From: Octopus sinensis
Taxonomy: Eukaryota
Reading direction: 5' to 3'
Assembly (NCBI RefSeq): GCF_006345805.1
Contig: NW_021834020.1
Span: 1 to 53,665, forward strand
DNA length: 53,665 bases
Part shown: positions 16,314 to 18,183 of the stretch, piece after piece
How positions within the stretch are numbered: position 1 is the first letter of the stretch
Layout: each line of letters opens with the position of its first letter
Translations under genes and position numbers: made by a program
The notes under the pieces: model-generated
The model's database searches: none
What the model was told of the DNA's origin: nothing
Seen by the model: the letters and a program-made list of their open reading frames with translations, nothing else

Positions 16314-16348
16314 ATATCGACCAGTTTCGCTATCGCTATTCATGATAT
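16314..16348 (-). ncRNA. Minimal hammerhead-like motif with A3:U8 core
   Basis: Minus strand: atatc-ATGAATA-gc gata gc-GAAA-ctgg-TC^gatat. Confidence 0.6.
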
Positions 16349-16827
16349 GTTTTCTGTATTTGAATTTTTATTTTTTCTTAAGAAGAAATTTTAGATAAAA
16401 GTTGGTTAAGCGTGCATATTTAGACGTGTTTTGTATTTTTCAATGAAAAATGTATTTTTAATTTAAACGATTTAGAATAAAGAAACTTTTTTCATTGAAA
16501 AATGCAAAACACGTCTTAATATGTACGCATAACCAACTTGCTCTGTCGTGGTCAATGTGACGATCCTACGCTACACACCTTCCTTCCAAGCACTGCGGTA
16601 AACAGCAGAAATGAGCTAGAACGCGAAAACTTAGCGCTCTTGCACAACAGAGTCCCAGGCCACTTTTTGCAAAGCAGTTTTACCCAGCATGCTTCAGTTT
16701 CATCCCTCTGATATACATACATAAAGACACACACAAATAAATGTACGGGGAAGATAATCGGTACAGAAGAGTAATAAAGTAATTTGACTTCTTTGGAGCT
16801 ACTACTACTACAGAAGACAGATATATG

Positions 16828-16876
<49 letters not shown>

Positions 16877-16940
16877 ATATGTATAAGAAAGTAAAAAAGG
16901 AAAATACGCACACTTACATAGTTTTAATATAATTTTTAAT

Positions 16941-16975
16941 ATATCGACCAGTTTCGCTATCGCTATTCATGATAT
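16941..16975 (-). ncRNA. Minimal hammerhead-like motif A3:U8, copy 2
   Basis: Identical to 16314-16348. Confidence 0.6.
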
Positions 16976-17661
16976 GTTTTCTGTATTTGAATTTTTATTT
17001 TTTCTTAAGAAGAAATTTTATGCATGATGTGAGTAATGAAATTCACGAGTGAATGACTTCACAAGTAGATATATAAAGGGAGGTAATTGATTGTCGTTAT
17101 TATTGTTATTGTTGTGAGTAAGGGAGATAACTTTTCAGCTTTCGGTAATGGGAGGGGAAATATGTATACGTGTACAGACACACACAATTTTCAAAAACCT
17201 TGTTTAGTAAGGGGATTTATGTACGGTAATGTAATCGTGAATTGAAATATGTAAAAAGATAAAAGTTAGTTAAGCGTGCATATTTAGACGTGTTTTGTAT
17301 TTTTCAATGAAAAAAGTATTTTTAATTTAAACGATTTAGAATAAATAAACTTTTTTCATTGAAAAATACAAAACACCTCTTAATATGTACGCATAACCAA
17401 CTTTCTCTGTCATGATCAATGCGACGATCACACGCTACACACCTTCCTTCCAAGCACTGCTGTAAACAGCAGAAATGATCTGGAACGTTAAAACATTAGC
17501 GCTCTTGCACAACAGAGTCCCAGGTCACTTTTTGCCAAGCAATTTTACCCAGCATGCTTCAGCTTATTCCCTTTCGGAACAATCGAGATACTGATTGATC
17601 AGACCTCGTATATATACATATATATATATATAATTATATATAATTAATATATATATATTAT

Positions 17662-17692
<31 letters not shown>

Positions 17693-17867
17693 ATATGTGT
17701 GTGTGTGTGTGTGTGTATGATTGTGTGTCTGTGTCTGTACCCGCAACATCGCCTGCTTGACAACCGATGCTGGTGTGTTAATGTCCCCGTAACCTAGCGG
17801 TTTGGCTAAAGATTCTGTAGAATATAATATATATATATATATATTATATATATATATATTTACATAT

Positions 17868-17898
<31 letters not shown>

Positions 17899-18016
17899 CA
17901 CACATACATACATAAACACACACACAAATAAATGTACAGGGAACATAATCGGTACAGAGGAGTAATAAAGTAATTTGACTTCTTTGGAGCTACTACTACA
18001 GAAGACAGATATATAT

Positions 18017-18093
<77 letters not shown>

Positions 18094-18148
18094 AGAAATT
18101 AAAAAAGGAAAATACGCACACTTACGTAGTTTTAATATAATTTTTAAT

Positions 18149-18183
18149 ATATCGACCAGTTTCGCTATCGCTATTCATGACAT
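18149..18183 (-). ncRNA. Minimal hammerhead-like motif A3:U8, copy 3
   Basis: Same core; stem I is atgtc/gatat (one G-U pair). Confidence 0.55.

Follow-up and report, generated by a model that had tools for sequence, protein, structure and literature searches.

A likely self-cutting hammerhead variant with an A3:U8 core pair in the 3′ UTR of a Penelope-like element from Octopus sinensis

A Penelope-like element (PLE) family in Octopus sinensis carries, in its 3′ untranslated region (UTR) or pseudo-LTR, a minimal type I hammerhead motif in which A3 and U8 take the place of C3 and G8. Judged from its sequence and from that of its relatives, this motif is likely a real variant of a self-cutting RNA. 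The reading favored here, at a probability of about 0.7, is that the minimal hammerhead of a PLE switched to A3:U8, that it is predicted to fold as a dimer joined by the palindromic stem III, and that slow cutting after C17 is likely; the three copies that started the analysis are, in the same reading, likely decayed passengers of a duplication. What gives the finding its value is the family together with its sister families, and not these three copies.

The three motifs and the element that carries them

The window, i.e., the whole stretch of 53,665 nt analyzed here, contains three hammerhead motifs of 35 nt, all on the minus strand: copy 1 at 16314..16348 (A3 at 16343, U8 at 16338, C17 at 16319), copy 2 at 16941..16975 (A3 at 16970, U8 at 16965, C17 at 16946), and copy 3 at 18149..18183 (A3 at 18178, U8 at 18173, C17 at 18154). 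The preliminary description had reported three such motifs with an AUGAAUA core, a paired stem I, a 2-bp stem II, GAAA and a GUC site, and each of these elements is present in every copy. The order of the parts is AUAUC - AUGAAUA - GC GAUA GC - GAA - ACUGGU - C - GAUAU, and the literal core C3 U4 G5 A6 N7 G8 A9 is absent. The 143 nt surrounding copies 1 and 2 are identical; in copy 3, one G-U pair replaces an A-U pair of stem I (5′ strand AUGUC, against AUAUC in the other two).

A relaxed descriptor, allowing any Watson-Crick 3:8 pair and asking for a self-complementary stem III and a stem I of at least 4 bp, returned these three motifs and no others from the whole window, with 0 matches in 300 locally shuffled windows. 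With looser settings one C3:G8 match was added at +2172; its stem II region spans 49 nt, and it is probably an unrelated chance match. The Rfam scan of the whole window gave no hammerhead among the 150 matches listed of 512, those listed being miRNA-like plus one viral UTR model. The first ~13 kb (1-13000) are mostly TATG/TGTA microsatellite with a strong G and T skew, and this region yields many spurious miRNA-model matches. When compared directly, the Rfam hammerhead models did not match the motif; a canonical C3:G8 relative (L147) also stays far below the threshold (E 4-6), so that A3:U8 by itself does not explain the lack of an Rfam match. The published descriptor for minimal hammerheads (min-HHRs), as given in the supplement of PMC4209133, requires "cuganga" as well as no fewer than 3 bp in stem II, and the motif would thus be missed on two counts. 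The earlier expectation that standard searches overlook the variant fits that descriptor.

As for the host, the motifs lie on the sense strand of a PLE, ~300 nt past the stop of its GIY-YIG domain. The GIY-YIG-like tail suspected upstream of them is real: the window holds only the final ~25 codons of the PLE open reading frame (ORF), ending in FFIE[K/N]YKTRLNMHA-stop, with stops at 16406-8, 17270-2, and 18481-3, which precede A3 by 63 nt in fragment 1 (after a deletion of ~240 nt of the 3′ UTR), 300 nt in fragment 2, and 303 nt in fragment 3. The fragments, all on the minus strand, run from 16250 to 16475 (last GIY-YIG codons, hammerhead, and 3′ end, by blastn to the family copy L061), from 16877 to 17339, and from 18075 to 18549, the latter two with the GIY-YIG tail, a 3′ UTR of 300 or 303 nt, the hammerhead, and the 3′ end. 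They are 5′-truncated, span up to ~470 nt, and each bears at its truncation a plus-strand fold-back piece of ~65 nt (16476..16539, 64 nt; 17340..17404; 18550..18614). Fold-back junctions are described as typical of PLE insertions (PMC8557442).

Fragments and fold-backs belong to a tandem duplication (15754..18910) with a unit of ~1.2 kb that includes non-PLE flanks, namely SINE-like and microsatellite DNA. Identity is 89% between 16713-17696 and 17904-18910, and 80% between 15754-16392 and 17606-18230. Related copies of the unit were found at C27:17.09 Mb (in tandem), at C27:17.40 Mb, and on C13085, which together with this contig makes four places only. Because the fragments and their fold-backs were duplicated along with the flanks, the triplication represents a single insertion copied at the DNA level: it is a later, passive tandem duplication of decayed PLE fragments. 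Each unit also holds, on the strand opposite to the motifs, a conserved piece (16110-16190, 16735-16810, and 17925-18000, plus strand) with the look of a PLE 3′ tail that ends in CTA repeats. The interval 14815-15960 contains several copies of a SINE-like repeat, which may be a cephalopod SINE.

The DNA around the motifs belongs to a dispersed repeat, for which a first look gave 1,526 candidates and 40 of these were scored; the window copies share 91-92% identity with one dispersed copy of the family. The copy L061 has a frame of 635 aa with a C-terminal GIY-YIG domain above the cut-off (28.8 bits), an RVT_1 match just under it (E 1.5e-6), and 465 relatives at E<=1e-20. The host is an endonuclease-bearing (EN+) PLE, with a reverse transcriptase (RT) and, C-terminally, a GIY-YIG domain in one ORF; it shows tandem and inverted insertions, a 3′ tail, and microsatellite targets, and its copies terminate ~55 or ~115 nt beyond the motif, mostly in (TA)n. 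At the tandem junction L326, the motif stands ~150 nt upstream of the ATG of the next ORF; the hammerhead is thus found after the stop and, in L326, before the ORF. A donor-like AT/GTAAGT occurs ~25 nt past the cut site in the three window copies (16285-16296, 16912-16923, and 18120-18131, minus strand) and in L326, and full copies have a pyrimidine-rich tract between this site and the ORF ATG. The site may possibly mark a 5′-UTR intron of the kind known from other PLEs; a search of the L326 junction gave no good candidate for its acceptor.

The strand opposite to the motifs carries an exon of a putative gene A at ~19030-19360 (19032..19360, plus strand), with a hydrophobic, signal-peptide-like N-terminus and a weak PAN/apple match (PAN_4, E 0.0035, below the cut-off). 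The position of the motifs relative to its putative intron is probably incidental. Farther upstream, a donor-like GGTAAGT near 13711 precedes a two-copy direct repeat (13740-13910 and 14240-14400) and may be part of a gene A exon on that side.

The 3:8 pair in the family and its relatives

The exact 25-mer of the family motif has 290 matches in the genome, and its reversed control has 0. A sample blind to the core was obtained with a downstream anchor, taking the first 90 of 319 matches: among the 86 copies that cover the core, A3:U8 is present in 81, a single change in 3, and a gap in 2. A second sample, collected by protein similarity, comprised 30 loci; at 27 of them the motif sits where expected, giving 28 motifs in all, and 27 of the 28 have A3:U8. 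The earlier proposal of a compensated variant is borne out by these counts, the 3:8 pair being kept in the family consensus, and by the related families, in which both bases are swapped jointly. U4 G5 A6, A9, G12 A13 A14, A15.1-U16.1, and G10.1-C11.1 are each found in 78-84 of the 86 copies and are invariant in the 12-row alignment discussed below; the NUH triplet is GUC in this family (family A) and GUA or GUU in relatives. Ten copies have the same stem II but lack A3: all ten retain U8 and none has C3:G8, as decay would give. A canonical C3:G8 subfamily with the stem II of family A was sought in the genome, and none was found. Contigs from three presumed-RNA runs and one other also cover the family, and none of the 40 differences listed (45 more exist) falls at positions 3 or 8; these contigs carry no information on strand, ends, or expression. 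In viral contigs, the A3:U8 pattern had 4 matches, 0 of which pass the stem filters.

The preliminary description had proposed a genome-wide relaxed search with position 3 paired to position 8. Patterns with an ACCGGU stem III, G10.1-C11.1, no bulge, and fixed core letters recovered from the genome 6,705 motifs of the same architecture (control, 0-13 per pattern), in which the 3:8 pair is U:A in 5,020, A:U in 1,062, C:G in 97, and G:C in 85. Watson-Crick pairs account for 6,264 of the 6,705 (93%), a figure that counts copies and not independent events. Arranged as a 2x2 table, there are 1,062 motifs with A3:U8, 79 with A3 and another base at 8, 66 with U8 and another base at 3, and 5,498 with neither (5,564 without A3 in total). 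With the textbook C3:G8 in only 97 of the 6,705, searches with a fixed core can overlook most of these motifs. Since the genome patterns fixed the core letters, the unbiased tests are limited to the metagenome loci, the protein-found loci, and the copies located by the downstream anchor.

A3:U8 occurs in at least three PLE families, i.e., family A of the window plus families B and D, and also in a rare family C. The proteins of B and A are 66% identical, those of D and A 62%, and those of B and D 56%. Their stems I differ and are all paired: AUAUC/GAUAU in A, UGUC/GACA in B, and AAAGCA/UGCUUU in D; GUAUC/GAUAC is a further paired version among the A3:U8 motifs. Family C (L226, L247) combines A3:U8 with stem I GAGUC/GACUC and a 3-nt loop 2, and no ORF was found upstream of these two loci. 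In family D, a U-A pair replaces C10.2-G11.2 and position 17 is A; its 23 motifs at 20 loci gathered by DNA similarity comprise 18 A:U, 2 G:C, and 3 mismatched pairs. The G3:C8 copies are subfamilies of D with the same flanks, some of them identical to the A3:U8 form apart from 3:8. These natural G3:C8 subfamilies (L305-L324) give 85 matches, against ~0.5 expected under independent decay, an expectation built on a count by eye of ~24 copies for each type of single change. Subfamilies D3, D4, and H have a mismatch at the second pair of stem II. A canonical family, exemplified by L452 (C1:182077512-182080540), contributes most of the 97 C3:G8 matches; its units are arranged head-to-tail and inverted ~360 nt apart, and it resembles either a non-LTR retrozyme or a short derivative of a PLE.

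In a gapless alignment of 12 rows, 95.8% of the cells are paired, with 28 double changes and all four Watson-Crick types at 3:8. None of 500 shuffles scored as high (0 for pairing, for double-change cells, and for covariation score) and slid controls were 14-41% paired, although these statistics are inflated by selection and kinship, the rows being related, hence not independent, and hand-picked with stem I paired. Double changes affect five of the five pairs of stem I and one of the two of stem II; stem III is invariant in the 12 rows, and it is altered yet palindromic in two outgroups. Among the representatives, G5, A6, A9, G12, A13, A14, and A15.1-U16.1 are fixed and position 17 avoids G.

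Metagenomes provided 76 loci of related elements, with 40 sense-strand min-HHR matches near the ORF, 1 antisense match, and 1 match in five shuffles. Their 3:8 pairs are C:G in 20, U:A in 15, U:G in 5, and A:U in 0. In L147, at 45% identity the closest metagenome relative, a motif with C3:G8, 2 bp in stem II, and ACCGGU stands at both ends of the ORF. Wobble U3.G8 cores are recurrent (L212, L213, L219, L142, L143, and L145; 5 of the 40 in the metagenome) and appear in some copies here.

In trees built from pieced-together copies, the purine-3 families are nested among pyrimidine-3 relatives, with A+B firm and D firm. The union A+B+D has a support of 90 with 27 rows and of 74/78 with 20 rows; a shorter alignment, which included the chimeric row L258 and the long, short-covered outgroup L155, places D apart from A+B (70%), and the later trees omit both rows. 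A single inversion of the 3:8 pair would be the simplest reading of the trees. Whether one PLE clade inverted its core pair to purine-3:pyrimidine-8 and has since spread carrying A3:U8 and G3:C8 ribozymes that are active is a tentative proposition, to which slightly less than an even chance is given.

Folding, cleavage, and competing readings

Taken alone, the motif folds weakly, with monomer energies of -1.6 and -2.7 kcal/mol, and its 2-bp stem III, with 2 nt to span, cannot be closed in a monomer. The minimum-energy dimer fold computed for L032, an intact copy of the family with ACCGGU, is a double hammerhead at -13.3 kcal/mol. The window copies have ACUGGU, and their hammerhead dimer reaches only -8.2 kcal/mol, ranking behind an alternative fold of -11.0 kcal/mol as a consequence of the C-to-U change at the stem III CpG.

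Is a core with A3:U8 able to cut? The 3:8 pair itself has been established by crystallography and by mutants, and Przybilski and Hammann are said to have found in 2007 that any Watson-Crick 3:8 pair retains cleavage in two type III ribozymes. PMC9901934 reports a full scan of the double mutants of a type III hammerhead, where rescue at 3:8 was limited to the G:C swap and every other combination was low; the natural U3:A8 is among these low combinations, so that A3:U8 is not singled out there. Min-HHRs of metazoans are described as cleaving poorly even as dimers (PMC4209133), and the C3G/G8C hammerhead of the Anolis PLE as partly active and in need of the protein of the element (PMC11167929).

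The favored reading joins these points in a mechanism where the RNA of active source elements would have been under selection. Pairing between two copies of this RNA would take place via ACCGGU, and cleavage, perhaps aided by the element's own protein as in the Anolis PLE, would process some tandem or read-through transcripts. Slow, dimer-dependent cleavage would be the property of the source elements, with reduced or no cleavage for the window copies, and most integrated copies would derive from RNA left uncut at the C17 site. Within the first 90 of the 319 family copies, no pile-up of 5′ ends at the cut site was seen that would signal cleavage in vivo: 2 of the 90 lie within 2 nt of it, vs ~1 by chance. 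In the same 90 copies (L355-L444), 21 of the 5′ ends fall 74-96 nt upstream of core position 3, which suggests an internal start site making short copies.

A different view of the same facts is that the hammerhead fold was selected for dimerization or protein binding of the PLE RNA, and that A3:U8 marks little or no catalysis. The unenriched ends at the cut site (2/90, from the first 90 of 319 matches) would suit it, as would the Anolis PLE, reported to insert in vitro without cleavage and with RNA-seq reads that neither start nor end at the site (PMC11167929), the low activity of the non-G:C swaps in one mutational scan (PMC9901934), and the absence of canonical hammerheads from some PLE clades as described in PMC8557442. 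However, the 3:8 pair is part of the active-state core as the consulted sources present it, and it stays Watson-Crick through repeated double changes with the other core positions fixed. Double changes at 3:8, a fixed core, and a position 17 that avoids G are what selection on the catalytic conformation predicts, and a role without cutting is considered unlikely.

The remaining explanations concern the window copies or the letters of the core. Three same-strand motifs spaced by 627 and 1,208 nt, each with its core intact, and a similar array on C27 might evoke a functional array of the retrozyme type, or a regulator acting antisense to gene A, with a minus-strand transcript cutting itself into monomers of 627 and 1,208 nt. 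Against this array, the unit includes host flanks (SINE-like and microsatellite) and was found in four places only, its identity to the dispersed copy is that of ordinary decay, the stem III change common to the copies weakens the dimer, and the monomer, at -2.7 kcal/mol, fails the -5 kcal/mol filter given for retrozymes (10.64898/2026.07.22.740005). A ribozyme on the antisense strand would not be present in the gene A pre-mRNA either, and array and regulator are together regarded as quite improbable. It could also be asked whether a second code imposes A3:U8, as Met-Asn codons closing the GIY-YIG domain or as a start codon formed by A3-U4-G5, seeing that the motif reads MNSDSETGR in frame, a string presumably similar to some GIY-YIG tails. 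For the start codon there are the AUG that overlaps the hammerhead of the Anolis PLE (PMC11167929) and the core AUG of L326, which shares the frame of the ORF except for a single stop, located at the donor-like site. The first version is ruled out by the ORF stop, which lies 300 nt earlier; as for the second, the AUG of family D meets a stop within ~13 codons, the G3:C8 subfamilies have no AUG, and the ORF has its own ATG ~150 nt downstream. A coding constraint is held to be very improbable. Last, a short motif with a weak monomer fold invites the idea of a chance resemblance in AT-rich repeat DNA, of negligible probability here: the 0/300 shuffles, the 81/86 of the core-blind sample, the canonical motifs at the same place in relatives, and the covariation refute it.

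Comparison with known hammerheads and Penelope-like elements

A natural A3:U8 core was not found in the literature searched, where subscription journals were thinly covered, while U3:A8 is published. Lunse et al. are said to have described in 2017 about 150,000 PLE-linked hammerhead variants; that study, the one of Seehafer et al. (2011), or their supplements may contain A3:U8 cores. If the proposition of one inverted clade with active ribozymes is true, no natural hammerhead with A3:U8 would precede this one, all four Watson-Crick cores would be in use within one genome, and a large hammerhead class would have been overlooked by searches based on CUGANGA. The natural families also offer a matched set of sequences suited to a cleavage assay.

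The closest counterparts are the min-HHRs of metazoan PLEs (PMC4209133), which share the type I layout with a short stem I, G10.1-C11.1, and a palindromic stem III, together with the pseudo-LTR or 3′-end site, the high copy number, and the covarying families. The Schistosoma Cercyon min-HHR has U3-A8 (Cervera and De la Pena 2014, PMC4209133), whereas here the pair is A3:U8, or G3:C8 in subfamilies, and none of the representative rows examined in Fig. S3 of that paper has a purine-3:pyrimidine-8 core. The min-HHRs depicted there, described without a defined loop 1, have a long, bulged helix II; the motif presented here has 2 bp and no unpaired base after A9, a stem II that is also found in the canonical relatives L147 and L193.

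Among the elements, the Anolis Poseidon PAc (Frangieh et al. 2024, PMC11167929) is likewise a PLE with a hammerhead whose cut ends are reported as unseen in its genome and RNA data, but its core is the canonical C3:G8, it overlaps the start of the ORF, and it belongs to another PLE clade. The Neptune/Nematis EN+ PLEs (Craig et al. 2021, PMC8557442) have in common with the octopus element the RT, a Cys-rich linker (CGRPNCGTC), the C-terminal GIY-YIG, the 3′ tail, the fold-back 5′ pieces, and the (TA)n targets, a likeness by description, as the trees were made without reference elements. Non-LTR retrozymes also consist of tandem units with a type I hammerhead; theirs are dispersed units with stable hammerheads, whereas the window unit arose by local duplication, contains flanks from the host, and bears a motif in weakened form.

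As for the core itself, Perreault et al. (2011, PMC3088659) described a natural covariation from C3-G8 to U3-A8 and stems II of 2 bp, both as here. U3-A8 is the only 3:8 variant seen in the consulted passages of that report, and C:G to U:A is the sole natural covariation in the literature located; the related elements of one genome supply here all four Watson-Crick pairs. These four pairs, which include near-identical subfamilies differing by a double change, argue for selection on the active-state core and not on the stems alone.
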